Source: Candidatus Altimarinota bacterium
GTDB taxonomy: Bacteria > Patescibacteriota > Gracilibacteria > UBA1369
Direction: 5' to 3'
DNA: 32,000 bases
NCBI GenBank assembly: GCA_041659405.1
Contig: JBAZYK010000002.1
Coordinates: 1 to 32,000 of the forward strand
In this document: positions 6,252-31,387 of the stretch, one piece after another
Layout of the letters: every line of letters begins with the position of its first letter
Numbering within the stretch: position 1 is the first letter of the stretch
Program-made: the position numbers and the translations under genes
The notes under the pieces: model-generated
The model's input: the letters and a program-made list of their open reading frames with translations, nothing else
Databases searched by the model: none
Told to the model about the DNA's origin: nothing

Positions 6252-8232
6252 GCTGCAAGGACTCGGTATTGAAACAATTAAAGACCTGCTGTTGTATTTC
6301 CCCAGAGTTTACGAAGATCGCAGTCTTTACACTTCAATTGCTGAACTTAGAACCGACGAAATTAACAATATTAGAGGTACGCTAAGTAACCTGTTTTTTC
6401 GCAAAACAAGAGTTGGTAAATGTCTGATGAAAGGGCGAATAACCGATCAAACGGGCTCAGTCGAAGTCATCTGGTTTAATCAGCCATACCTGCAAAGAAT
6501 CCTTAAAAATGGCCAACAGATAGTCGTTTCCGGAAAAGCAAAATATAACCAAGGCAAATTAAGTCTTTTGGGCCCGTCGTTTGAACCTGTAAAAAAAGAG
6601 CAAACACACGTGGGAATAATCATACCGGTTTATCATGAAACAGAAGGAATTAATTCTAAATGGCTGCGTGAAAAAATAAAGCCACTATTAAAAGAATGGA
6701 AAAGTTTTTTCAGCGAGTATCTGCCGGAGGATATAATCGAAAAATATCAATTAATGAGCTACTCAAATGCAATCGAGATTGTTCATTTTCCCAAAGACGA
6801 AGAAACACTTAATGAAGCCAAGAAACGCCTGAGCTTTGATGAGTTATTTTTACTCCAACTCAAAGCTCTTCAAAAAAAATGGCATTGGCAAAATATTGCC
6901 GAGCACGAAAAAAAGCAGATAGAGAAGGATCCGGTAATTGCTGATTTCATCAAGAATTTGCCTTATGAATTAACCAACGCCCAAGTACGAAGTTTGGAAG
7001 AAATCCTCTTCGATCTTCAAAAGCCATATCCAATGTCCAGGCTCTTGCAAGGGGATGTAGGCTCGGGAAAAACCGTTATAGCAGCCATTGCCGCACTTAA
7101 TGTTTTAAAAGCCGGCTTCCAGGTTGCAATCATGGCTCCAACCGAAATCCTGGCCAAACAACATTATCTGACAATTTATAAATTTCTAAAAAATCTAAAT
7201 TTTAATATTCAATTCATTGCAGGGAGTACACCGGACGGAATCAAAGAAGAAATAACTCAGAATTTGGCGTTAGGTACAATCGACATAGTCATTGGCACAC
7301 ATTCGTTAATACAGGAAAATATTCGTTTCAAAAAGCTGGGTTTAGCTGTAATTGATGAGCAGCATCGCTTTGGCGTAAAACAGAGAGAAATTCTAAAAAA
7401 TCACAACAGTCCACATCTTTTAAGTCTTTCCGCCACACCAATTCCACGAACCCTGGCCATGACCATTTATGGGGATCAGGATCTTTCAATCATTGACGAA
7501 ATGCCAAAAGGAAGGCAAGAAATCATCACCCGCATCGTTCCGGAAAATAAGCGCATGGACGCCTATCGCTGGATAGAAGATCAAGTTAAGAAGGGACGTC
7601 AGGCTTTTATTATTTGTCCATTAATTGATGAATCTGATGTACTTGAGGTTAAATCGGCTATCCAGGAATTTGAATATTTAAAAGAAGCAGTTTTTCCACA
7701 ACTTAAAATGGGATTGCTCCACGGAAAAATGAAACCAAAAGACAAAGAAGAAATCATGAATTTATTTTCCTTAAACAAAATTAATATTTTGGTTTCTACT
7801 TCGGTTATTGAAGTTGGAATCGATGTTCCCAATGCCAGCATTATGGTTATAGAAGGCTCTGAACGTTTTGGGTTGTCACAATTACATCAATTTAGAGGAA
7901 GAGTAGGTCGTGGAAACCATCAATCATACTGTTTTCTTTTCACTAAAAGCAGATCGGAAAATGGGGGAAACAGACTACAGGCAATGGTTAAACACACCAG
8001 CGGTTTTAAATTGGCCGAAATTGATTTAAGTTTAAGAGGGCCGGGCGAAATTTATGGCGTAAAACAAAGCGGCATTCCTGACCTAAAAATGGCCTCACTC
8101 AGCGATTCTGCAACCATTTACATTGCCCGTGAAGCTGCGCAAAATATAATTGATAAAGATCCTCAATTAAAAAACTATCCAAAACTAAAGGAAAAACTGG
8201 ATAAACTCCAGGAAGTTTTTGTGAACGATTAA
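6193..8232 (+). CDS. recG: ATP-dependent DNA helicase RecG
   Basis: N-terminal LQGLGIETIKDLLLYFPRVYEDR followed by a wedge domain. Helicase motifs: LLQGDVGSGKT (I), VIDEQHRFG (II/DEQH), SATPIPRT (III), QLHQFRGRVGRG (VI). Confidence 0.95.
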   Translation: MSLNSKLSNQLKTTKGHLNKLQGLGIETIKDLLLYFPRVYEDRSLYTSIAELRTDEINNIRGTLSNLFFRKTRVGKCLMKGRITDQTGSVEVIWFNQPYLQRILKNGQQIVVSGKAKYNQGKLSLLGPSFEPVKKEQTHVGIIIPVYHETEGINSKWLREKIKPLLKEWKSFFSEYLPEDIIEKYQLMSYSNAIEIVHFPKDEETLNEAKKRLSFDELFLLQLKALQKKWHWQNIAEHEKKQIEKDPVIADFIKNLPYELTNAQVRSLEEILFDLQKPYPMSRLLQGDVGSGKTVIAAIAALNVLKAGFQVAIMAPTEILAKQHYLTIYKFLKNLNFNIQFIAGSTPDGIKEEITQNLALGTIDIVIGTHSLIQENIRFKKLGLAVIDEQHRFGVKQREILKNHNSPHLLSLSATPIPRTLAMTIYGDQDLSIIDEMPKGRQEIITRIVPENKRMDAYRWIEDQVKKGRQAFIICPLIDESDVLEVKSAIQEFEYLKEAVFPQLKMGLLHGKMKPKDKEEIMNLFSLNKINILVSTSVIEVGIDVPNASIMVIEGSERFGLSQLHQFRGRVGRGNHQSYCFLFTKSRSENGGNRLQAMVKHTSGFKLAEIDLSLRGPGEIYGVKQSGIPDLKMASLSDSATIYIAREAAQNIIDKDPQLKNYPKLKEKLDKLQEVFVND

Positions 8233-11514: not shown

Positions 11515-11523
11515 ATTATAACA
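11515..11523 (-). promoter_or_regulatory. Candidate extended -10 promoter (TGTTATAAT) for the transglutaminase-like/DegT/FemAB operon
   Basis: The minus strand reads TGTTATAAT, matching TGnTATAAT, 23 nt upstream of the ATG at 11491. No clear -35. Confidence 0.4.
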
Positions 11524-11726: not shown

Positions 11727-13301
11727 CTACAAAGTTGTATCACGATATCCAATCTGTTTTAAAAATTCAGTAAAGTTAACACTGCTCAAATGATTTGGAT
11801 CAAAAGGTAAAGTTTCATCTTTAAGTGCTGTTTGAATCTTGCCAACCGTACCTTCTGATGACAATACAATCAAAGCCTTCGCTACCCTACTCCCAAAATC
11901 ATCAGTTGCAGGGCCATAAAACGTCGGATTCACATCAGGATTAACCAATATGTTCATAAATTTTTCAAACAAATGAATCTCTTTTTCAGTCAACGCAGCA
12001 TGATCTATAGAACGTCCAAAAAGCTTTGTAGAAAGATCAGCTAGTTGTGCATCATTCAACTCTTTATTATAAGCCTGATGAAATTGTGGCATCCTTCTAA
12101 GCAAAACGTCAGTAGCCAATGCATCCAAACGAATACAATTACCGGCAAGCCGTAAACTTCTTGGAGGAACAGTAACTTTTCCATGATCGGAATTTGAATC
12201 ATAAAAAGTATAACGAGCATTCTGATCAGAAAAACCTGAAGCTCCAATAGTATCAATCGACATCTCAACACGGACTTCCCCTGGCAAAACCAGTGTATAG
12301 TGACCATTTTCAGGATCATAAGATTCAACTCTTTTCGCCCCAAAACGCGCAGCCGCACCAGCAGAAGAAACTATTGGTTGATGAGATGGATCAATATTTT
12401 GAACCTCTAAATTTAAAGGAAAACCCTGATTTTCATTAGCGGCTGATTGATTTTCTTTATCAGCTTTAGCTTGCTCTTCTTCAAGCATCTGTTCCCATTC
12501 TTCATCACTAATCCCCTGCCCTTTTGCGTCTTCAATCTTATTCAACATTGCATGATAAGAAGAGAAATATCGCTGAGCTTCAAATGCTTGCGTTTGCAAA
12601 CTTTTCACCACATCCTCAAAAAGAACTTTAACATTACCTTCAGGCAAATTATCAAGACCACAAGTGGCCTTAAAATTTTGATACAATGCTAGCTTGGAAG
12701 CCTCATCCAACTGATCATAATGCAAAAGCTTTCCCGAAACTTTAGGATCACGAACATAATCCAAAACTCTTTTTGTTAAATCTTTTGGAGCTGAAGGATT
12801 TTCTTCCTGGAATTTTTGGACGTAAACTGCAAGTACGTTATCCAACAAATCACTTAAAAAAGTATAACCCTCTTTTAGAAAAACAGTATGGCTCTGTTCT
12901 TTGGAATATTCCTTTTGTTCAACTGTAAACTTATTTCTGGTCTTGCGATAAAACTGTTGAAAATGCTTAGGATCATCAATAAAACCACTAAGCATTCCAC
13001 GACACAACGCAGCTTTTTCCTTAACGGAAGGATGAGTAGATAACGTCAAAAATCCGGGATCAAAACCTATATTATCTGCAGCCTGAAGAACATAGAAAGT
13101 GTTAACTTTATCCTTCATCTCCTCTGCTGCAAGTTCCGCTCTCTGCCTTGAGCGCTCATCTATAAAAGCTGAACGCTCATCCATAAATTTAGGATCCTTC
13201 AGCTGCTTACTCAATGATTGTGGGACAGTACGAAGCTGCCCCAACCCTTCTTTGGAAAGTTTAGGCGATTCAAACGCTGGTTTTTCAATACTATCCGCCA
13301 T
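11727..13301 (-). CDS. Hypothetical protein, 524 aa, soluble, no recognisable domain
   Basis: Long uninterrupted ORF with ordinary codon and amino-acid composition. No TM segments or signal peptide by eye. Acidic coiled-coil-like centre (EEWEQMLEEEQAKADKENQ). Two TATAAT boxes on the minus strand (13325-13330 and 13333-13338) upstream of the ATG. Confidence 0.7.
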   Translation of the reverse strand: MADSIEKPAFESPKLSKEGLGQLRTVPQSLSKQLKDPKFMDERSAFIDERSRQRAELAAEEMKDKVNTFYVLQAADNIGFDPGFLTLSTHPSVKEKAALCRGMLSGFIDDPKHFQQFYRKTRNKFTVEQKEYSKEQSHTVFLKEGYTFLSDLLDNVLAVYVQKFQEENPSAPKDLTKRVLDYVRDPKVSGKLLHYDQLDEASKLALYQNFKATCGLDNLPEGNVKVLFEDVVKSLQTQAFEAQRYFSSYHAMLNKIEDAKGQGISDEEWEQMLEEEQAKADKENQSAANENQGFPLNLEVQNIDPSHQPIVSSAGAAARFGAKRVESYDPENGHYTLVLPGEVRVEMSIDTIGASGFSDQNARYTFYDSNSDHGKVTVPPRSLRLAGNCIRLDALATDVLLRRMPQFHQAYNKELNDAQLADLSTKLFGRSIDHAALTEKEIHLFEKFMNILVNPDVNPTFYGPATDDFGSRVAKALIVLSSEGTVGKIQTALKDETLPFDPNHLSSVNFTEFLKQIGYRDTTL

Positions 13302-13414: not shown

Positions 13415-13423
13415 TGCTATAAT
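13415..13423 (+). promoter_or_regulatory. Candidate extended -10 promoter (TGCTATAAT) for the 1303-aa gene
   Basis: Perfect TGnTATAAT at 13415-13423, 26 nt upstream of ATG 13450, inside the 148-bp divergent spacer. Confidence 0.4.
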
Positions 13424-13449: not shown

Positions 13450-16400
13450 ATGGGAGGCGACGCAAACAAGCCAAAAGGAAAAATCGAAAATGCAGAAAGG
13501 GCCAAGGATCAAAGAGAAATCACCCCCTCAGACGCAAGTAAGCAGGAACGAGCTTCCGTGGCGATTGATGTTACAAAGGGGAAATCTGAAAAAGAGATTG
13601 CTGCTAGGCTTGAAGAACACAAAGAAAAGGGCTCAGAAACATTAAGTACAATCAAATCAATAAATGTCTCAAAAGAGACAAAAGAGCAGTTGGAAGCAAT
13701 TAAACTACTTAAAGTTATAAGTTACGTTGTTTTTACTAAACTTTTTAATAAAGGGCTTAAATTCAAAGACGTAAAAGAATTATCATCCCTAACAAATGTT
13801 TCTACAAATTTAACAACAGAACTGGATAGCAATGAAAAAACAGCTTTTGAAAAATTAAAAGAAATTGCCGAAAACTCTAATTCAATCCTTTTTAAGGAAT
13901 TCACGCAAACAACGGAAAATACATTTAATTGGAGTTCATTTATTGAAGATGCACACGCACAATTCCAAGCCGTTGCATTTAAACCATCAATGCATGCACC
14001 GGAAACTGTGCCTTTAAAACCAACTGAAGAAAGTAAAAGTCCAGAAAAAGCCTTCCACGAAAGGGCCTTTGATTGGATCAAGGAAAACCCAGGTAAAACA
14101 GCACTCATAACCGCAGGAGTATTCATTGCCGGTTATGGCCTTTATGAATATTTCTCATCAGATGAGAATAAAGATGAAAAAAAAGAAGGAAGTAATATGA
14201 ATAAATATTTATTGGGAGGAGGTTTAGCATTATCAGGATTGGTTTTGGGAGGAATTTTAGGAAAAGATAAAGTTTTGGATTGGTTTAAGGAACATGAATG
14301 GATTTCAGATGAAAAGAAAGAAAAATTCCTGGCCTATTGGAACGCAGGAGAAAGGCTAAAAGCAATCGAAACATTATTTGAAAGTCCGGATCCAAACTGG
14401 GAAAAAGAAAAACAAATTGCCGAAAAAATTTCAAAAGAAACAGGTAAAAAAGTATCCGCACTTACTCTTAGTTCGATAGCAAATCTAAAATATGATGATT
14501 TTAGAGGAATGTCCGATGAAGTAAAAAAACTGGCAAGCTCATTACTGAAAACGGGTGGATTGAGTTTTCTTTCCAAATTGGTTGAAGAAAGCCCTATTGT
14601 AGTGCAAGAAGCAAAAGTCATAAAAGATTATTTAGCAAAAAAACAGGATAAAATTAAAGCATTGAACCTACCTGAAAACGTCACTGTACTAGAGGTATTG
14701 GGCAAATTGACTGAAATTCATGTCGAAGTTATCCCACAACCAGAAGAGGAAAAAAGCGTGATTGGAAAGGCGGGAAAAGCAGCAGGAATTGTCTTCGTAG
14801 AAGGAAAAGAGAAAGTTAGTGGGTTTTTCCAGGAAAGCTATGACGCAATCAAAAAAGAATTTGATGATATCCCTGAAATACAAGAAATTTTAAAAAAATA
14901 CGATAATGGAGAAGCCACTCTCCACCCTTATAATTTCATTACAGAACTTTTTAACGCCTGTACTAAAAATAAAGTGGATATTGTTTTAGGTATGGGAAAA
15001 GTTGCACTTTACCGTGGCGGAAAATTTATTTTCATTTCAAGTTACGAAACTTTATATAACACCGCAGTAGCTTTTGTAAAATCGCCAGGCATAAGTGCCC
15101 CAGTTCAAGAATATCTGATAGGTGCAACTCCATTTATTGCAGTTGGTAGTGCTATTGGAGGAATTATCAATTCGGTCCAAGGACATAGTTTTGTTGCCGG
15201 TGCCTTTAGGGGAGCCGCAAAAGGAGCGATTTTTCCTGTCACAATCGCAACTGAAACTGGAAAATTTATAACAAGAGGACCACAAAGAATTTATCGAACA
15301 GCGAAAGGAATGGAATATTCTGTAAAAGAAACATTTAGTTCCGAAGCAGGGAAACTGGCAATAATTGAAGAGGAAGCCAGATTCTATGCTAAAATTGCTA
15401 ACGGCTATGACGATTTAATCGTAAACAAAGATGGATTATCTATCATCAATCCAAAACGCTGGTATGCAAAATTAAGCAAAGCCCGACTTGAAGAGCTTCG
15501 CTTCGAATACATGAAAAAGTTTGCTATTGCCTACAACAAATTAAACAAAGGACCAGCACTAAGTATTGAAAAACTTAACGATACGGCAGAAATAAAAGAT
15601 GCCAGACAGAAGATATATGATCTTTTAAAAGATGCAGAAGCTAAGGATAAATTGAAGTCAACAGCGGCAAAAACAACTCCGGTTTTACCCCCAGAAGAAC
15701 CAAAACATCTTGGCTCAGAAGGCCCTAGTGGTCCTGATCAAAAGCATAAATATAAATATTTCAATGAAGAGGTTGAGCTACAACAAAAAAATATCGAAGC
15801 AAAAGCTGGCGAAATCGCAAAAACTGAAACACCTCCGACAGATCCTGCAGAACTGCAGAAATGGAATGATACAAACTGGAATAAAGCCATCAAAGCGCTT
15901 TGTGAAGAAAAGCTGCTTACTCCAACGCCAGTTCAAGGCAAAAAAGATGTTTATCGCTTTCAAAATAAAGAAATTACAATTCCAAAATCCGAAATTGAGG
16001 CAAAGATGAAGACTTCCGGAATATCCGAAATAGAGGCAACTAAAGCGCTTTGTTATGAAAAAGCTTTAGCTCACGTCACAGTCCAGGAAGTTAAAATTGT
16101 TAACGGCGAATATCAATACAAAATTAATGGAGAATGGGTCACACCAGATGATCCTAAAAATCCGGTTAAAGCCGCTGAAATTAAAGAAAAGTGGATGAAC
16201 GAAATGCAAAAGAAAGGTGTGAATTTTGATTTTCAGAAATTTGCCGGTGAAGCAAAATACTTCAAATATTTCTCTGCATTCGAAAAAGTTCTAGGTACCG
16301 CAGCTGCAGTTGGAATATTTTATCACCTCTACAGTGCACCAGATAAGAAAAAAGCCGTAGCGGAAACAACCGCAGGCCTAGCCACATTTATCACTGGAGC

Positions 16401-17361
16401 AAAATTGACTGAATGGAAAATAGGTAAGCACTTCAAAAATCCGATAGCAAAAGGAGTCATCGACATGATGGGTGGAGTTGCATTTGCCATGGGTTTCACC
16501 GAACCAATTTCAAAATTAGTTGATGATTTTATTGATGTTTTACCTGCCGGATATGGAGTTTCAAAAGAAGTGGCCGAAATAATGGAAAAAGCGGCAGCGG
16601 GCTCAATTGTTAGAACAGCTACTTTAAGTCTTGAAAAAGGAATCTTAAGATCAGCGGTTGAAAAAGGAGCAACAAAACTTGGATTCAAGGGAATAGAAAG
16701 AGTATTCGAGAAAAAAATTGAGAGTACGTTTCTCAAGAAAATAATGACGTTTAGCGCAGAAAAAGGATTTGGTAAAATCTTAAAAATGCTAGGCTGGAGA
16801 GGCGCAACCACCATAGCCCTGCTTGCCGACGACGCAACGGTAATAGGCGTTCTAGACGACGTAATCGCTTTAGGGTTTATTGTTTGGATGGGCATCGATA
16901 TCGTCGAAATTGTGATGTTGATGAGGAATGCATACAAAGTAAAAGAGCAAATGGCACAAAGAACAGGAAAAGAAATCACTGAATTTAAACCTGAACACGG
17001 CAAAAGCGAAGCTCTTATTCAAAAAGAACTGGCCAAATATGGTAAAACCATAAGCCAAATTCACGAATTGAGTGAAGACGATCTTTTCGCAATTTTAAAA
17101 TCCATTGATGAACCGGTAACATTCAAAATCAAACGAGCGGGAGTAGCCGGATATGAATCCTGGACATTAACTAAAGGTGAAGCAAGCGGAATTGCTATTT
17201 TTGACGACGCAGGAGGCAAAATTGCAGAAATCGAAGATAAAGATGCGGCGAAAATCGACAAGGCCGTTAAGGAAATGGAAGAGAAAGCACAAAAGGAAGG
17301 CAAAACCGGCAAAGTTGATGCTCCTTCTGAAGGCCAAACTCCAGCTGCCAAAGCCGCTTAA
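13450..17361 (+). CDS. Giant hypothetical polytopic membrane protein, 1303 aa, no recognisable domain
   Basis: K/E-rich N-terminal region of about 200 aa. Hydrophobic segment pairs near aa 216-272 (ALITAGVFIAGYGLY, LLGGGLALSGLVLGGILG), near aa 555-602 (LIGATPFIAVGSAIGGIINSV, FVAGAFRGAAKGAIFPVTIA), and a cluster near aa 947-1158 (VLGTAAAVGIFYHLY, GVIDMMGGVAFAMGF, VIGVLDDVIALGFIVWMGIDIVEIVML). Degenerate tandem repeats near aa 767-923. Confidence 0.8.
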   Translation: MGGDANKPKGKIENAERAKDQREITPSDASKQERASVAIDVTKGKSEKEIAARLEEHKEKGSETLSTIKSINVSKETKEQLEAIKLLKVISYVVFTKLFNKGLKFKDVKELSSLTNVSTNLTTELDSNEKTAFEKLKEIAENSNSILFKEFTQTTENTFNWSSFIEDAHAQFQAVAFKPSMHAPETVPLKPTEESKSPEKAFHERAFDWIKENPGKTALITAGVFIAGYGLYEYFSSDENKDEKKEGSNMNKYLLGGGLALSGLVLGGILGKDKVLDWFKEHEWISDEKKEKFLAYWNAGERLKAIETLFESPDPNWEKEKQIAEKISKETGKKVSALTLSSIANLKYDDFRGMSDEVKKLASSLLKTGGLSFLSKLVEESPIVVQEAKVIKDYLAKKQDKIKALNLPENVTVLEVLGKLTEIHVEVIPQPEEEKSVIGKAGKAAGIVFVEGKEKVSGFFQESYDAIKKEFDDIPEIQEILKKYDNGEATLHPYNFITELFNACTKNKVDIVLGMGKVALYRGGKFIFISSYETLYNTAVAFVKSPGISAPVQEYLIGATPFIAVGSAIGGIINSVQGHSFVAGAFRGAAKGAIFPVTIATETGKFITRGPQRIYRTAKGMEYSVKETFSSEAGKLAIIEEEARFYAKIANGYDDLIVNKDGLSIINPKRWYAKLSKARLEELRFEYMKKFAIAYNKLNKGPALSIEKLNDTAEIKDARQKIYDLLKDAEAKDKLKSTAAKTTPVLPPEEPKHLGSEGPSGPDQKHKYKYFNEEVELQQKNIEAKAGEIAKTETPPTDPAELQKWNDTNWNKAIKALCEEKLLTPTPVQGKKDVYRFQNKEITIPKSEIEAKMKTSGISEIEATKALCYEKALAHVTVQEVKIVNGEYQYKINGEWVTPDDPKNPVKAAEIKEKWMNEMQKKGVNFDFQKFAGEAKYFKYFSAFEKVLGTAAAVGIFYHLYSAPDKKKAVAETTAGLATFITGAKLTEWKIGKHFKNPIAKGVIDMMGGVAFAMGFTEPISKLVDDFIDVLPAGYGVSKEVAEIMEKAAAGSIVRTATLSLEKGILRSAVEKGATKLGFKGIERVFEKKIESTFLKKIMTFSAEKGFGKILKMLGWRGATTIALLADDATVIGVLDDVIALGFIVWMGIDIVEIVMLMRNAYKVKEQMAQRTGKEITEFKPEHGKSEALIQKELAKYGKTISQIHELSEDDLFAILKSIDEPVTFKIKRAGVAGYESWTLTKGEASGIAIFDDAGGKIAEIEDKDAAKIDKAVKEMEEKAQKEGKTGKVDAPSEGQTPAAKAA

Positions 17362-27873: not shown

Positions 27874-28275
27874 CTATAAAGCCTGTAAATCCTTAAAAGC
27901 TTTTTCAAATGAATTCAACGCTTGTTTGCCCTCCGATAAACTCACATGGAAATTCAATTCATGCGCGATTTTATTACGTAATTTGTGGGCAGACCAAACC
28001 GCATCAAGATGACTAAAAAGCTTAGCTGAAACCTTAAGCTTCTCCCCTAAAGTCCCCCTGTAACCCTTCTTTTCCAAAATCATATTCAAAAGTTTATCCG
28101 CCTCCAAAACCGCATGCTTAAGATCCGGCTGCTTTTTTATAATTTGCCATTGCAGATTAAAAAACCGTTTTTCCTGCTTACTAAAAACCCTTTTTCTTTT
28201 CAGGACGAACCAGACAAGAATCAAGCCACAAACAATTAAGACCAAAAGGGCAAAAAAGGCGATACTACTATCCAT
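27874..28275 (-). CDS. Membrane-anchored small protein with a HEPN-like Rx4H motif
   Basis: 133 aa. N-terminal TM helix (IAFFALLVLIVCGLILVWFVL) followed by an all-helical domain. It contains AVWSAHKLRNKIAHEL, that is R-N-K-I-A-H, matching the HEPN RX4-6H / RNxxxH signature. Confidence 0.45.
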   Translation of the reverse strand: MDSSIAFFALLVLIVCGLILVWFVLKRKRVFSKQEKRFFNLQWQIIKKQPDLKHAVLEADKLLNMILEKKGYRGTLGEKLKVSAKLFSHLDAVWSAHKLRNKIAHELNFHVSLSEGKQALNSFEKAFKDLQAL

Positions 28276-28285
28276 AAATTAAAAA

Positions 28286-28894
28286 TTACTGATTCTTTTG
28301 AGTTTGTGTAGCCGTTCCATTTTTCTTAGCATGATGTCTTAACATCACAGTTAAGAGATTCTTAAGAGAATCCGCATCTTTAAGATTCTGATCGGAAACG
28401 AAATGCTCCTGATTGGAAAGAACCAGCCTTTCAACTTTTGCAGGATTTGCCGCATCCAATAAAGTAATGGAAGTACTATTTGCGACCTGACCAAGTTGAA
28501 CATCACCATAGTTGAAAACAGTTCTTACAAAGCCACGAAGAGCATAACTGATACCATCAATATTGTGATACTCCAAACGCGAAGAGGCACGATCAAAAAA
28601 GCCATTCCACTCAACCTTCACCAAACTGATATTGGTAAGCAAAAGAGCATCATGGTACCAATTAAAAATCAAATAAAAAACCTTAATAGACCCTACCGCA
28701 AACCAAAGAACAAAAAATAATGAAAATTCCGGAAATAAATAATACAAGAATAATGGCACCAAAAAGCCAAAAAATGCAACGCGCAACAAGTCAGGCAAAA
28801 CCACAAAAATATGTCTATGACAAACATACAAGATTTCTTCACCCGGATCCAAATGAACATCAAACAAACGCTTAGCTATAATGGTCGGACTCAT
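28286..28894 (-). CDS. Membrane protein with two TM helices followed by a bacterial PH-like (bPH_2/DUF304, YdbS/YdbT-like) domain
   Basis: A cytoplasmic N-terminus, then a TM hairpin (LLRVAFFGFLVPLFLYYLF; FFVLWFAVGSIKVFYLIF), then WYHDALLLTNISLVKVEWNGFFDRASSRLEYHNIDGISY...GDVQL, typical of membrane-flanked bPH domains. Confidence 0.5.
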   Translation of the reverse strand: MSPTIIAKRLFDVHLDPGEEILYVCHRHIFVVLPDLLRVAFFGFLVPLFLYYLFPEFSLFFVLWFAVGSIKVFYLIFNWYHDALLLTNISLVKVEWNGFFDRASSRLEYHNIDGISYALRGFVRTVFNYGDVQLGQVANSTSITLLDAANPAKVERLVLSNQEHFVSDQNLKDADSLKNLLTVMLRHHAKKNGTATQTQKNQ

Positions 28895-29017
28895 GACGGA
28901 TTCATAACTTATAAAATCTTCATTAACAATACTATAATAAAATTATAATGTAAATGTCCACAAGATTGCAGGATGGCCTTTTTAAGAGTAGAGTCGATAT
29001 TGTTAACTTTTCTGATT

Positions 29018-29710
29018 ATGATCAAAAAAATAAAGCAATTATTCAACAAATATCCAGCCCTGGCCTTTATTGGGGACATTTTATTGAATCTGATCATTAT
29101 CATTGGACTCGTTTTTATTATCCGTAATTTTTTAATTTCACCTTTTGAAGTATATGGCCCTTCAATGTGCGACACACTAAATAATATAAACGGAGAATGT
29201 CAACAAGGACATGGTGAATACATAATTGTAAACAAAGCCATTTATGGCAATTTTTTGGGTCTTCAAGTCGGCAAGCCACAACGTGGAGATATAATCGTCT
29301 TTCACCCACCACTTAATAACAAAGAATTTTTTATTAAAAGAGTAATTGGACTCCCTGGCGAAACAATCAAACTGGTCAATGGTTATGTTTACATTATTAA
29401 CAAGGACAATCCTGAAGGTTACAAACTGGAAGAATCATATTTAAGCGCGGAAAATCTGGGAAACACGCATCCTGCCAGTCAGGGAGATACCGTTTTTAAA
29501 GTCCCTGAAAATAAATACTTCGCTTTAGGCGACAATAGACTCCACAGCTCGGATTCCAGAAGCTGCTTTAAGGAATATTCAAATCAGGACTGTGGCAAAC
29601 CCGGGGCAACTCCATTTCTACAACCATCTGAAATTGAAGGAAAAGCATGGTTAGTCCTATGGCCAATCAGCAAGATCGAAAGCCTAAAAAACCCTTCCTA
29701 CGGGATCTAA
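29018..29710 (+). CDS. lepB: Signal peptidase I
   Basis: TM anchor, Ser box GPSMCDTL, Lys box FIKRVIGLPGETI, box E GDNRLHSSDSR. The ORF opens at ATG 28973. I prefer ATG 29018 (MIKKIKQLF...) as giving a normal N-terminus. TATAAT boxes lie at 28933-28938 and 28944-28949. Confidence 0.9.
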   Translation: MIKKIKQLFNKYPALAFIGDILLNLIIIIGLVFIIRNFLISPFEVYGPSMCDTLNNINGECQQGHGEYIIVNKAIYGNFLGLQVGKPQRGDIIVFHPPLNNKEFFIKRVIGLPGETIKLVNGYVYIINKDNPEGYKLEESYLSAENLGNTHPASQGDTVFKVPENKYFALGDNRLHSSDSRSCFKEYSNQDCGKPGATPFLQPSEIEGKAWLVLWPISKIESLKNPSYGI

Positions 29711-29714
29711 CAAC

Positions 29715-29792
29715 AAAACAATCTGAATAAATTTTTAAAATACACAGGGCCCCTACCCCGGATGTATTTAAAAAATTTATTCAGATTGTTTT
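29715..29792. repeat. Hairpin 1: 30-bp inverted repeat (29/30 matches) with an 18-nt GC-rich loop
   Basis: AAAACAATCTGAATAAATTTTTAAAATACA (29715-29744) pairs with TGTATTTAAAAAATTTATTCAGATTGTTTT (29763-29792). The loop is CAGGGCCCCTACCCCGGA. It starts 5 nt after the lepB stop. Confidence 0.85.
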
Positions 29793-29917
29793 AACGTTTG
29801 TATCGTAGTTTGTCTTTAGCATCTAACTATTTGGTAGAATACATAGAGCTAAGCTAAACACCCTAAAAAAAACTTTGGGGAATGTTTATGAACACATCCG
29901 GGGTAGGGGCCCTGTGT
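29742..29917. repeat. Perfect 24-bp GC-rich inverted repeat pair flanking a 128-bp segment
   Basis: ACACAGGGCCCCTACCCCGGATGT (29742-29765) and its exact reverse complement ACATCCGGGGTAGGGGCCCTGTGT (29894-29917). Each copy sits at the apex of one of the two local hairpins. Confidence 0.85.
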
Positions 29918-29948
29918 GTGAAGAAATATTTCCCAAAGTTTTTTTTAG
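29863..29948. repeat. Hairpin 2: 17-bp inverted repeat with a 52-nt loop carrying the second GC-rich 24-mer
   Basis: CTAAAAAAAACTTTGGG (29863-29879) pairs with CCCAAAGTTTTTTTTAG (29932-29948). The right arm overlaps the TAA stop (29945-29947) of the 125-aa minus-strand gene. The A-run and T-run arms give a bidirectional-terminator-like look. Confidence 0.8.
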
Positions 29949-30322
29949 CTTTGTTCTTTGGCCATAAAATAGAATTCTACCAGGGTTATTGCCGCTATAA
30001 AGAGCAAACCGGACCACCAGGTCAACACTCCTAAAAGTTGAAAAGCTAAAGATCCCACCGCCAAAAAAGTCAAAAGGACTCCTTGTCTGAAGGCAATATT
30101 AATATGATTGTAGTAAATCTCGTTTTTGTTGAGCCAAACACGAAAATAAAAGCCAACAACCGTAAAAGTACAAATCAACGCTACAAAAAGGCTCAAGAAA
30201 AATAACCCCAACGACACCCCCGTAGAAGCAAAGGGATCAAGTTTATTTAGAACCACAATCCAGGCAATCCAGCTTAAAACACCTGCGGATCCTATAATGG
30301 CCAAATAACGATGATGTGACAT
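29945..30322 (-). CDS. Hypothetical small integral membrane protein (about 4 TM helices)
   Basis: 125 aa, almost entirely hydrophobic helices (YLAIIGSAGVLSWIAWIVVL, SLGLFFLSLFVALICTFTVVGFYF, VLLTFLAVGSLAFQLLGVL, GLLFIAAITLVEFYF). Confidence 0.6.
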   Translation of the reverse strand: MSHHRYLAIIGSAGVLSWIAWIVVLNKLDPFASTGVSLGLFFLSLFVALICTFTVVGFYFRVWLNKNEIYYNHINIAFRQGVLLTFLAVGSLAFQLLGVLTWWSGLLFIAAITLVEFYFMAKEQS

Positions 30323-30335
30323 TTTAAAAACTTAA

Positions 30336-31316
30336 TTAATATTTCTTTTGTCTTTTAAGTACAAACTGAATAAAGAACAGAAACGCCCCCAAGATCAAGA
30401 AAATAAAGGAAATCTTTCTAATTTCCGTAGTAAGAAAACTAAAAACATATTCCAAATAACGACCAAAATCTTCCGAATTGCCAAATGCCTGAAAAATATT
30501 TGATCCACCATCTTTATAACTGGAAAATATTACCGGGATCAAAGATTGTAAAAGAAAACTGCTCAAGAAGCCAAGAATTCCACTTACAATAAACGCTACA
30601 GATTCAAACCTTAGCATTAACGAAATCGGATAATAAATGATCAACGCAACAAAGAAAACCAAAGCAATCAAAGCAAAAAGTAAGTAAACTTTCAACCGAT
30701 CAATCCACAAAAACATATAATAAAAAGCCTGATTTTTGCTTTTTGCACTGCTTAAATCAATCTGAACCTGCTGCGGCAAAAATGCATAAACGGTCTTTTC
30801 AAACTGCTTCGAAATCGGAGCGGAAATATTTGCGTAATCCAAACCCTTTGGAACGCAGGTAGGAATCCCCTCCGCATTCACCTCAGGCAATTGATCTACC
30901 TTACAAACAGGTAAACTTTGAAAAAGTTTATAAGCCAAATTATGAGTTACCGTTAACAAACTATCCTGAAAAACCTTCAAGGAAATAGCTACGGGAACGT
31001 CAGGTTTCTCTTTCAAACTAGCCATCTCCTGACCAAAATCCCCGGTCAACTTTCGTAAAATATCAATTTTAAAAACATTCTGAACCTCTTTTTTTACATC
31101 AACCAACTTAAAATGTCCCTGCAGTGTTGGATCGGCCTGATAAATATGGATGGAAACAGCATTTACAAAAAAGTCATAAGAGCCATCAACCACAGGCCCG
31201 GTATAAAAACTTGGCGAAAAATAGGTTTTCGACAAAGCATAAACCAAAAAAGTCGGCAAAGAAATAGCTATAAACAGGAAGACAAAAAACGCAGCAATAA
31301 TCCGACGAATAATCAT
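30336..31316 (-). CDS. Hypothetical membrane protein (N-terminal anchor, extracytoplasmic domain of about 170 aa, C-terminal multi-TM region)
   Basis: The ORF opens at GTG 31352, with ATGs at 31340 and 31316. I prefer MIIRRIIAAFFVFLFIAISL (31316) as a canonical signal-anchor. A minus-strand TATAAT at 31344-31339 would put the transcription start between the alternatives. Confidence 0.55.
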   Translation of the reverse strand: MIIRRIIAAFFVFLFIAISLPTFLVYALSKTYFSPSFYTGPVVDGSYDFFVNAVSIHIYQADPTLQGHFKLVDVKKEVQNVFKIDILRKLTGDFGQEMASLKEKPDVPVAISLKVFQDSLLTVTHNLAYKLFQSLPVCKVDQLPEVNAEGIPTCVPKGLDYANISAPISKQFEKTVYAFLPQQVQIDLSSAKSKNQAFYYMFLWIDRLKVYLLFALIALVFFVALIIYYPISLMLRFESVAFIVSGILGFLSSFLLQSLIPVIFSSYKDGGSNIFQAFGNSEDFGRYLEYVFSFLTTEIRKISFIFLILGAFLFFIQFVLKRQKKY

Positions 31317-31387
31317 GGCAAAAAATAATAACTCACACATTATAGAGTACACTTGGAAAAAACAGAAATTTTTTATCTAATTTGAAA

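Follow-up and report, generated by a model that had tools for sequence, protein, structure and literature searches.

The lepB spacer and its two hairpins

We analysed a stretch of 32,000 nucleotides (nt) from a Candidatus Altimarinota bacterium (assembly GCA_041659405.1, contig JBAZYK010000002.1, positions 1 to 32,000; hereinafter the window), in which lepB, encoding signal peptidase I, and a gene for a membrane protein of 125 amino acids (aa) converge on a spacer that holds two long hairpins with one and the same 24-nt sequence at their tips. Contigs with related loci are referred to by our own handles (L032, L042 and so on). The features of the locus, in window coordinates, are the following:

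28973-29710, + strand: lepB, open reading frame (ORF) for signal peptidase I (Peptidase_S26), the left convergent gene; stop codon TAA at 29708-29710
29711-29944, no strand: spacer between lepB and the 125-aa gene; 234 bp, a clade-specific gain
29715-29792, no strand: hairpin 1 (H1-type stem); arms 29715-29744 and 29763-29792, 30 nt each with one mismatch, 97% complementary
29742-29765, + strand: invariant 24-mer at the tip of hairpin 1, ACACAGGGCCCCTACCCCGGATGT, which is ACA-CAGGGCCCCTACCCCGGA-TGT
29793-29799, + strand: AACGTTT directly 3' of the lepB-proximal hairpin; kept in 4/4 alleles with a hairpin there, whatever the stem type or orientation
29793-29862, no strand: middle segment of 70 nt, the first 28 nt common to L042 and the remainder found only in the window allele
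29821-29948, no strand: 128-bp block absent from L042, made up of the right part of the middle segment and hairpin 2
29832-29840, + strand: extended -10-like sequence TGGTAGAAT, pointing at hairpin 2, in a segment present in the window allele only
29863-29948, no strand: hairpin 2 (H2-type stem); arms 29863-29896 and 29915-29948, 34 nt each, 29/34 paired (85%)
29894-29917, - strand: second copy of the 24-mer, at the tip of hairpin 2; exact reverse complement of 29742-29765
29945-30322, - strand: ORF for the 125-aa predicted membrane protein, the right convergent gene; stop codon at 29945-29947

Each hairpin has 18 nt between its arms. The 18 nt enclosed by hairpin 1 (CAGGGCCCCTACCCCGGA, orientation 'F') are the exact reverse complement of those enclosed by hairpin 2 (orientation 'R'), and the closing ACA/TGT extends this 18-mer to the 24-mer. 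Hairpin 1 is bracketed by AAAA and TTTT and displays the C-rich form of the tip on the + strand; hairpin 2 is bracketed by A8 and T8, displays the G-rich form on the + strand, and supplies the stop codon of the 125-aa gene from its T-run. An earlier note on this DNA, made from the letters alone, had described two hairpins at these positions carrying the same 24-mer in opposite orientation, and sequence and folding agree with it; the 17-bp outer stem that it gave for hairpin 2 is perfect as well, but the 52-nt loop that it placed on this stem is not a loop, since the inner 17 nt of each arm pair too, with five mismatches, leaving arms of 34 nt (85% paired) around the 18-nt loop. With three mismatches allowed, the 18-nt core has two occurrences in the window and no match in 100 shuffles.

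The spacer folds far better than its shuffled counterparts on both strands (z of -9.0 and -9.5), and folding of the single hairpins gives z of -4.4 to -10.8. As RNA, hairpin 1 has a predicted folding free energy (dG) of -34.3 kcal/mol on the + strand and -40.7 kcal/mol on the - strand (z of -9.6 and -10.8), and hairpin 2 has -45.2 and -31.3 kcal/mol respectively. The R (G-rich) forms are 6-14 kcal/mol more stable as RNA because the tip on that strand, UC-CGGGGU-AGGG-GCCCUG, adds a stem of six further pairs with a 4-nt AGGG loop and a UC bulge. Transition-type mismatches, at four independent stem positions and two in the tip, are without exception G.T when read on the G-rich strand and A.C on its complement. 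Along with the better RNA folding of the G-rich forms this asymmetry suggests that a single-stranded, probably RNA, fold is kept, and it modestly favours selection on such a fold of the G-rich strand (p about 0.02-0.06).

Each hairpin starts no more than 4 nt from a stop codon and has the general anatomy of a bidirectional terminator, in that a T/U-tract follows a stable hairpin (dG of -31 to -45 kcal/mol when folded as RNA) on either strand: A8...T8 in hairpin 2, and AAAA...TTTT plus AACGTTT in hairpin 1, where the heptamer and the TTTT of the stem form a T-rich tract. The bidirectional terminator that had been among the possibilities first raised is thus matched in its A-run/stem/T-run anatomy but not in canonical size, for which a short GC-rich stem beside the U-tract and a loop of 3-8 nt would be expected, the arms being 30-34 nt long and AT-rich and the GC-rich part lying at the tip. 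A terminator consensus scan flagged only sub-parts of the hairpins, including the tip with the following T-rich arm.

Gain of the spacer within one clade

Genomes of the Candidate Phyla Radiation (CPR), or Patescibacteria, are extremely compact. The remaining four convergent gene pairs of the window are spaced by 9, 20, -4 and 11 bp and have no comparable hairpin, much as the 0-20 bp without hairpins first reported for them. Overlaps of 4 nt between the stop codons of convergent genes recur in the lineage (window 17358-17361; L034 6690-6693; L043 9461-9464), which makes a convergent spacer of 234 bp unusual in it. Two outgroup lineages, L034-L037 (125-aa protein 86% identical) and L043 (85%), show the same gene order without the spacer; at ~27% nucleotide divergence, their lepB and 125-aa genes overlap by 4 nt at the stops. 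As this overlap is seen in both outgroups, the spacer was gained in the clade of the window, in which the 125-aa gene diverges by 3-10% at the nucleotide level. Conservation of the spacer in relatives, the lack of which the earlier note had listed among the signs of a fortuitous or lineage-private terminator, is confined to the clade: every clade contig reaching the spacer retains at least one hairpin with an intact tip, but the two outgroup lineages lack it.

Spacer alleles and their rearrangements

We compared seven alleles of the spacer, that of the window and six further ones recovered, on 10 clade contigs. L042 has hairpin 1 in the same orientation, H1(F), followed by a 28-nt tail only, and lacks exactly 29821-29948. 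L039 has an H1 variant with the tip flipped (R), then AACGTTT and a 52-nt tail unrelated to the middle segment of the window; there are compensatory stem changes in the H1 of L042 and of L039. L033 and L040, two contigs of one run joined via the tip and a shared compensatory TTTAGG/CCTAAA variant, have an H2-type hairpin that is inverted whole, arms and tip, and stands directly after lepB at the usual site of H1, followed by AACGTTT and then by a tail that shares homology with the L039 tail. L044 fuses the first 17 nt of the spacer (CAAC and the outer 13 nt of the left arm of H1) to H2(R), which marks it in all likelihood as a deletion derivative of a two-hairpin allele. An H2(R) variant, with the inner stem TGTGTTCAG as in L044, abuts the 125-aa gene in L041, and window-type H2(R) abuts it in L032 and L045; H2-type hairpins in window orientation are thus found in L032, L041, L044 and L045.

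The alleles with a single hairpin (H1 in L042 and L039, H2 in L033+L040 and L044) show that the hairpins are separate units. A single miniature inverted-repeat transposable element (MITE) with the 24-mers as its terminal inverted repeats does not agree with these separate units, and a 24-bp long-range helix between the two copies cannot be a conserved function since most alleles have one copy. The idea that transcripts of both convergent genes would carry the same motif at a hairpin apex holds for the window allele, but orientation relative to the genes is not kept across alleles. The segment between the two 24-mers (29766-29893), taken for a possible inverton, is inverted in 0/7 alleles and 0/10 clade contigs, and no recombinase was found in the window or the neighbouring loci. 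The inversions that we did observe are flips of the interior of one hairpin, with its flanks unchanged.

Both stem types, H1 and H2, are present in each of the two sub-clusters of the clade. At its lepB 3' end L044 resembles the window (9 differences in 153 nt), whereas in the 125-aa gene it groups with L039 and L040 (15-16 differences, against 33 to the window), so that a recombination breakpoint lies within the spacer or beside it. The ENA contig ERZ27249449 k141_661276 begins with the window, the left ends of the two coinciding, and it is from this one contig that the two-hairpin arrangement is known; indirect support for it comes from L042 for the left part, from L032 and L045 for the right part, and from L044 as a deletion derivative.

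Covarying stems and an invariant tip

Six complete hairpins were aligned in a common orientation over 78 gap-free columns. In this alignment 92% of the pair cells are paired and 12 of the 30 pairs have changed on both sides, a level that 0 of 500 shuffles reach, and pairing falls to 35-53% when the partner is slid; the covariance analysis of related spacers that the earlier note had suggested thus finds compensatory changes. The tip behaves differently from the arms. Within stem types, 0 of 48 tip columns are variable as against 19 of 108 in the arms (Fisher p=5e-4), and between H1 and H2 none of 24 tip positions differs as against 24 of 54 in the arms (p=2e-5). The 24-mer is identical in all seven independent occurrences in related strains (nine contig sightings), while stems and flanks diverge, which supports, in modified form, its reading as a special motif. 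Arms of H1 and H2 are not alignable beyond their AT-richness (p=0.44) and do not share the terminal inverted repeats by which copies of a MITE would be recognised. These comparisons indicate that the pairing of the stems is under selection, and that the tip is under purifying selection beyond what pairing would need.

The middle segment and the promoter-like box

We detected no relation of the middle segment to the tails of L039 and L040 or to the ends of the flanking genes (shuffle tests, p=0.04-0.9). That it arose by inverted duplication of the end of the 125-aa gene or of lepB was considered and rejected, the respective matches (the 9-mer TGGTAGAAT and the 7-mer ATCTAAC) not being significant (p=0.04 and 0.27, uncorrected). 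A third, imperfect pairing reported earlier, of 29812-29820 with 29853-29861, does appear in the minimum free energy fold with 8/9 pairs, but the segment occurs in no other allele and nothing supports the pairing. The 128-bp block, which has no terminal inverted repeats, is bounded by a 6-nt direct repeat, TTTAGC (29815-29820 and 29943-29948); this repeat could stem from target-site duplication or have served as microhomology in a deletion, and the picture would be the same in both cases.

A second, exact inverted copy of the box TGGTAGAAT lies at 29974-29982 on the - strand, in the 3' end of the 125-aa gene (codons L-V-E-F). It has TTTATA 16 nt before it and resembles a promoter reading into hairpin 2, possibly by coincidence (p=0.04, shuffle). 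The pattern TGNTANAAT is not enriched in the window, with 10 found and 8.7 expected. Extended -10 boxes also occur as TGTTATAAT and TGCTATAAT at 11515-11523 (-) and 13415-13423 (+), 24-27 nt upstream of gene starts and within the few intergenic gaps; their presence before two gene starts suggests that -35-independent promoters are plausibly used here.

Assembly breaks at the tip

Five Logan contigs (from SRR6484324, SRR22388057, SRR18595301 and SRR22388063) cross the tip and stop 1-6 nt into the second arm. L032 ends at 6428, L033 at 2799 and L045 at 11343, all at ...CCCCGGATG, and L041 at 2251, one base earlier, at ...CCCCGGAT; in L040, at 2751, the reverse complement starts with CACACAGGG. 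No more than 24 nt are common to the two halves from SRR22388057, and L039 and L044 run through the tip uninterrupted. The k of the Logan assembly, presumably 31, is longer than the 24-nt repeat. A branch in the de Bruijn graph, owing to inversion, to chimeras of H1 and H2 or to single-nucleotide polymorphisms between strains, was considered as the cause of the ends and rejected, as no such model places the branch at the observed base. The breaks may be technical, as an effect of coverage or errors, or may reflect real heterogeneity at the tip.

Searches for further copies

Further copies of the tip were found neither by exact nor by 4-mismatch nor by covariance-model search in ~131 kb of the window and related loci, ~41 kb of which are non-redundant clade sequence. 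The exact 18-mer has 17 matches in the GTDB representative genomes (596 Gb), unrelated and mostly in GC-rich coding contexts, and the chance expectation (596e9 x 2 / 4^18, or ~17) equals this count; it has 14 matches in JGI metagenomes, all in unrelated contexts, and 0 in IMG/VR. Thus the additional copies that the earlier note had envisaged are absent from the ~41 kb of clade sequence, and the GTDB and JGI matches lie in unrelated contexts, the former at a chance count. One JGI contig, L027 (Ga0265295_1026132), has the exact 18-mer at 809-826 and 968-985, in direct orientation and 159 nt apart, in what appears to be a tandem repeat of an unrelated contig of 53% GC, without hairpin context.

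The covariance model of the six hairpins retrieved no new member, and its one weak match scored 34.5 bits as against ~100 for true members. This match, at 2276-2357 of L043, lies in an outgroup glycosyltransferase gene and consists of an 18-nt A/T-rich inverted repeat around a GC-rich centre with CCCCTACACCGAATG, of which 13/15 positions match CCCCTACCCCGGATG of the tip; it is probably due to chance, because the region is coding and in frame.

At the gathering thresholds of Rfam 15 the only window match was tRNA-Leu, and a permissive search of the spacer returned only generic miRNA-precursor hairpins (13-33 bits, thresholds 39-219). Against phages and plasmids, a BLAST search with the spacer retrieved nothing beyond matches of E ~1 to the AT-rich arms. 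Among the Pfam matches of the window and neighbouring loci there was no recombinase, transposase or RAYT domain (RAYT being the tyrosine transposase associated with repetitive extragenic palindromes, REPs), and a search of the literature on palindromic repeats or MITEs of Peregrinibacteria and Patescibacteria yielded nothing relevant. We also considered dif/Xer sites, parS, integron attC, the signal recognition particle (SRP) RNA and DNA-uptake sequences, and rejected them for misfitting anatomy: the 24-mer is not a dyad and has two copies in 32 kb, there is no GC-skew turn, and Rfam gave no SRP match.

Flanking proteins and the wider window

All 877 LepB homologues collected have PF10502, and some are named signal peptidase I of Peregrinibacteria. 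The 125-aa protein has no match in a Pfam search, nor has any of its 173 homologues a Pfam domain; the protein P0121, identical to it, is annotated as 'hypothetical protein WC843_01150 [Candidatus Gracilibacteria bacterium]'. By homology, these two proteins assign the window to the Peregrinibacteria/Gracilibacteria part of the CPR. To the right of the window the clade sequence was extended by ~9 kb through L032 and L045; a search for homologues of a solute-binding protein encoded on L032 led to a cluster representative on a 2.4-kb contig.

Several conserved ORFs of the window have no Pfam domain at E<=0.01, namely those at 13450-17361 (+), 11727-13301 (-), 30336-31352 (-), 28286-28894 (-) and 27874-28275 (-), one of them encoding 1303 aa and another 524 aa. 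At the left end of the window, short terminator-like hairpins at 155-194 and 247-278 adjoin tRNA-Leu(CAA) (285-371, - strand). These hairpins, TTTTCTTTTGACGGG...CCCGACAAAAGAAAA and CACGAGAGAAAACC...GGTTTTCTTTCGTG, have stems extended by A/T-runs in the style of the spacer hairpins at a smaller scale.

Interpretation and alternatives

The interpretation toward which we incline, if tentatively, is that the hairpins are independent, selectively maintained terminator-type cassettes whose palindromes drive local rearrangement. The spacer would then be a clade-specific insertion holding two independent copies of one kind of cassette, each composed of a long AT-rich stem that is free to change as long as it pairs, an invariant GC-rich tip of 24 nt and the bracketing A-run and T-run. 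Its function would most likely be factor-independent termination in both directions, together with protection of the 3' ends, for convergent lepB and 125-aa genes whose stop codons overlapped in the ancestor; the tip could serve as a cap that nucleates the hairpin or as a site read by a putative factor. The palindromes would at the same time destabilise the locus. Interiors may be flipped by recombination or template switching between a hairpin's own arms, segments may be lost between short direct repeats (TTTAGC, T-runs, AACGTTT, A-runs), and spacer alleles may be exchanged between strains, the window allele being the form that would have kept both cassettes. The simplest history would start from a single gain of a composite H1-AACGTTT-...-H2-AACGTTT-tail and proceed by flips, deletions and allele exchange. 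Signatures of deletion are seen in the TTTAGC repeat around the 128-bp block, the 17-nt remnant in L044 and the T-run junctions. The reverse order, with successive insertions, may also apply, and would turn the hairpins into a small mobile family if more copies exist elsewhere.

Several observations weigh against this interpretation. The four other convergent pairs of the window manage without a hairpin at 0-20 bp, so a terminator is not a general need in this genome. Stems of 30-34 bp and a tip of 18 nt far exceed those of canonical intrinsic terminators, the tip has no fixed orientation with respect to either gene, and the strand asymmetry involves as few as 4-6 positions at p about 0.02-0.06. 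Furthermore, a purely structural role does not explain an invariant 24-mer on two non-alignable stems; neither the cassettes nor a mobile family would account for 24 nt without palindromic symmetry staying frozen on stems that are unrelated to each other, which suggests that some factor recognises the sequence. We give a small chance to the proposal that the 24-mer is the recognition site of a dedicated factor, such as a nicking or recombining enzyme or an RNA-binding protein, presented at the tips of arbitrary stems; flips, exchange of stem types, clustering of two cassettes and the recurrent end of independent assemblies at one base beyond the tip would then be the footprints of this factor.

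The alternative that fares best is a multi-copy, non-autonomous family of mobile palindromes, resembling MITEs, REPs with their composites known as bacterial interspersed mosaic elements (BIMEs), or the REP doublets known as REPINs. We hold it to be rather unlikely. A transposase or nuclease with its gene elsewhere would recognise the tip, pairing would be all that the stems require, two members of the subfamilies would have landed next to each other, and any terminator activity would be incidental. The absence of the spacer from the outgroups is as expected for such a family, as are the differences between close strains in presence or absence, orientation and stem type at one site, and the TTTAGC repeat that bounds the 128-bp block. 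Descent of both from an older family that had already diversified would most easily account for an identical tip on two unrelated stems; units clustered in alternating orientation recall BIMEs; and GTAG, the tetranucleotide that REPs conserve, is found on the G-rich strand of the tip. Yet a family needs copies, and no extra one was found in the ~41 kb of clade sequence or the 131 kb of related loci, with the GTDB 18-mer count at chance. Moreover, the inserted DNA has no bounding terminal inverted repeats, each lepB-proximal hairpin has a non-palindromic tail, known families conserve their ends or stems rather than their centre, the sequences seen encode no transposase, RAYT or recombinase domain, and a copy is kept by all clade members, unlike a transient selfish insertion.

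Recognition could also take place at the level of DNA, with the 24-bp tip as a site on a cruciform or single-stranded hairpin for a recombinase, a nicking enzyme of the HUH type, a primase or a nucleoid protein, whose action would in turn produce the flips, cassette swaps and deletions. The 24 nt that stay invariant in changing surroundings, the persistence of flipped alleles, which hints at a function independent of orientation, and a conserved loop on variable stems, as is known for the origins of HUH enzymes, would all be consistent with it, and a site-specific discontinuity or heterogeneity is one way to read the Logan contigs, five of which, from four runs, stop just beyond the tip within 1 nt of a common base, with a sixth starting 4 nt ahead of it. 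We judge it improbable nevertheless: no candidate enzyme is encoded in the sequences seen and no second locus was found, the G.T/A.C asymmetry favours a single-stranded, probably RNA, fold, and the contig breaks can be technical (low coverage, errors at GC-tipped palindromes), with L039 and L044 running through.

More doubtful still is that the 128-bp block is a gene for a small RNA, a transcript of ~100 nt that would start from TGGTAGAAT, include hairpin 2 in its G-rich form and end at U8, with the conserved tip as the working loop of a regulatory RNA. The box does lie in intergenic DNA and the same type of promoter is found 24-27 nt before two gene starts, the + strand of hairpin 2 has the most stable fold (-45.2 kcal/mol) and is followed by T8, and the wobble asymmetry favours the G-rich strand. 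The segment with the promoter is, however, found only in the window allele, the other hairpins following directly on a stop codon or an unrelated tail; the -10-like pattern is not enriched and Rfam gave no match; and the G-rich form keeps no constant orientation towards possible promoters. Finally, an inverton, in which the 24-bp inverted repeats would be recombinase sites and the 128-bp segment with its promoter-like box would switch orientation, is suggested by the geometry of the window allele (perfect 24-bp inverted repeats 128 bp apart with a -10-like box between them) but is highly improbable, given that single-hairpin alleles are common and the pair is thus not the unit, that no allele or contig joins the left arm of H1 via the 24-mer to the reverse complement of the left arm of H2, that the window and neighbouring loci encode no recombinase domain, that TGGTAGAAT faces a convergent gene from its 3' side and, with both flanking genes converging on the spacer, a promoter that switched would yield nothing but antisense RNA, and that the Logan ends fall 1-2 nt short of the branch expected for an inversion.

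Whichever of these readings applies, a structured insertion of 100-230 bp that is kept throughout a clade, with co-varying stems and 24 nt frozen over 3-10% coding divergence, is a candidate functional non-coding element, and we know of almost nothing on terminators, small RNAs or repeat elements of the CPR. If the tip were indeed read by a factor, this would amount to a new recognition logic, in which a tip sequence is read on any stem, and to a new tip-defined hairpin element in the CPR. If the hairpins are only terminator cassettes, as in the interpretation that we prefer, they would offer a natural example of long palindromes flipping, swapping and decaying in a wild bacterial population. 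On the practical side, short-read assemblies break at the locus, which could be used as a marker of strains.

Comparison with known systems

The hairpins share with bidirectional intrinsic terminators a stable hairpin within a few nt of both stop codons, with an A-run on one side and a T-run on the other, and compensatory changes that keep the pairing. Unlike in those terminators, where stems measure about 5-14 bp, the stems are of 30-34 bp, it is the tip and not the base by the U-tract that is GC-rich, the tip is invariant over 18-24 nt, and the other convergent pairs of the genome do without a terminator.

The REP/BIME/REPIN systems of proteobacteria, with their RAYTs, are reminiscent of the spacer in that they are extragenic palindromes at gene 3' ends, often occur as linker-joined pairs of alternating orientation and are polymorphic in number between strains, with GTAG in the conserved part; they act as terminators or stabilisers of mRNA. 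However, REPs are GC-rich palindromes of 20-40 nt that occur in tens to hundreds of copies and have GTAG at the foot of the hairpin, whereas the conserved part is here the non-palindromic tip of a long AT-rich hairpin known from one locus. The 24-mer itself is no palindrome; its GTAG is central in the tip, and it is the variable, AT-rich arms that pair. Bacterial MITEs (Correia, RUP, ERIC) are similar in size (80-130 bp), in folding back, in presence/absence polymorphism, in the direct repeat at one boundary and in possible side effects as promoters or terminators, but their copies share terminal inverted repeats, while in the present case the arms differ, the centre is shared and non-palindromic tails are included.

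Small flips of hairpin loops are well documented in the intergenic spacers of plastid genomes. In these 'flip-flop' inversions, as in the lepB spacer, the loop and an asymmetric inner stem are found in either orientation in relatives with unchanged flanks. They are a mutational phenomenon rather than a functional family, and would explain the flips but not an invariant tip on different stems. The stem-loop origins of HUH enzymes (rolling-circle plasmids, CRESS-DNA viruses, the ends of IS200/IS605) likewise have a conserved sequence at or near the loop and variable paired stems, but their loops, of 9-13 nt, contain a defined nick motif and adjoin a Rep or transposase gene, none of which is seen here. 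In sum, the element belongs with intergenic palindromic terminators or repeat elements of the kind already known, and what is unusual about it is its conservation pattern.

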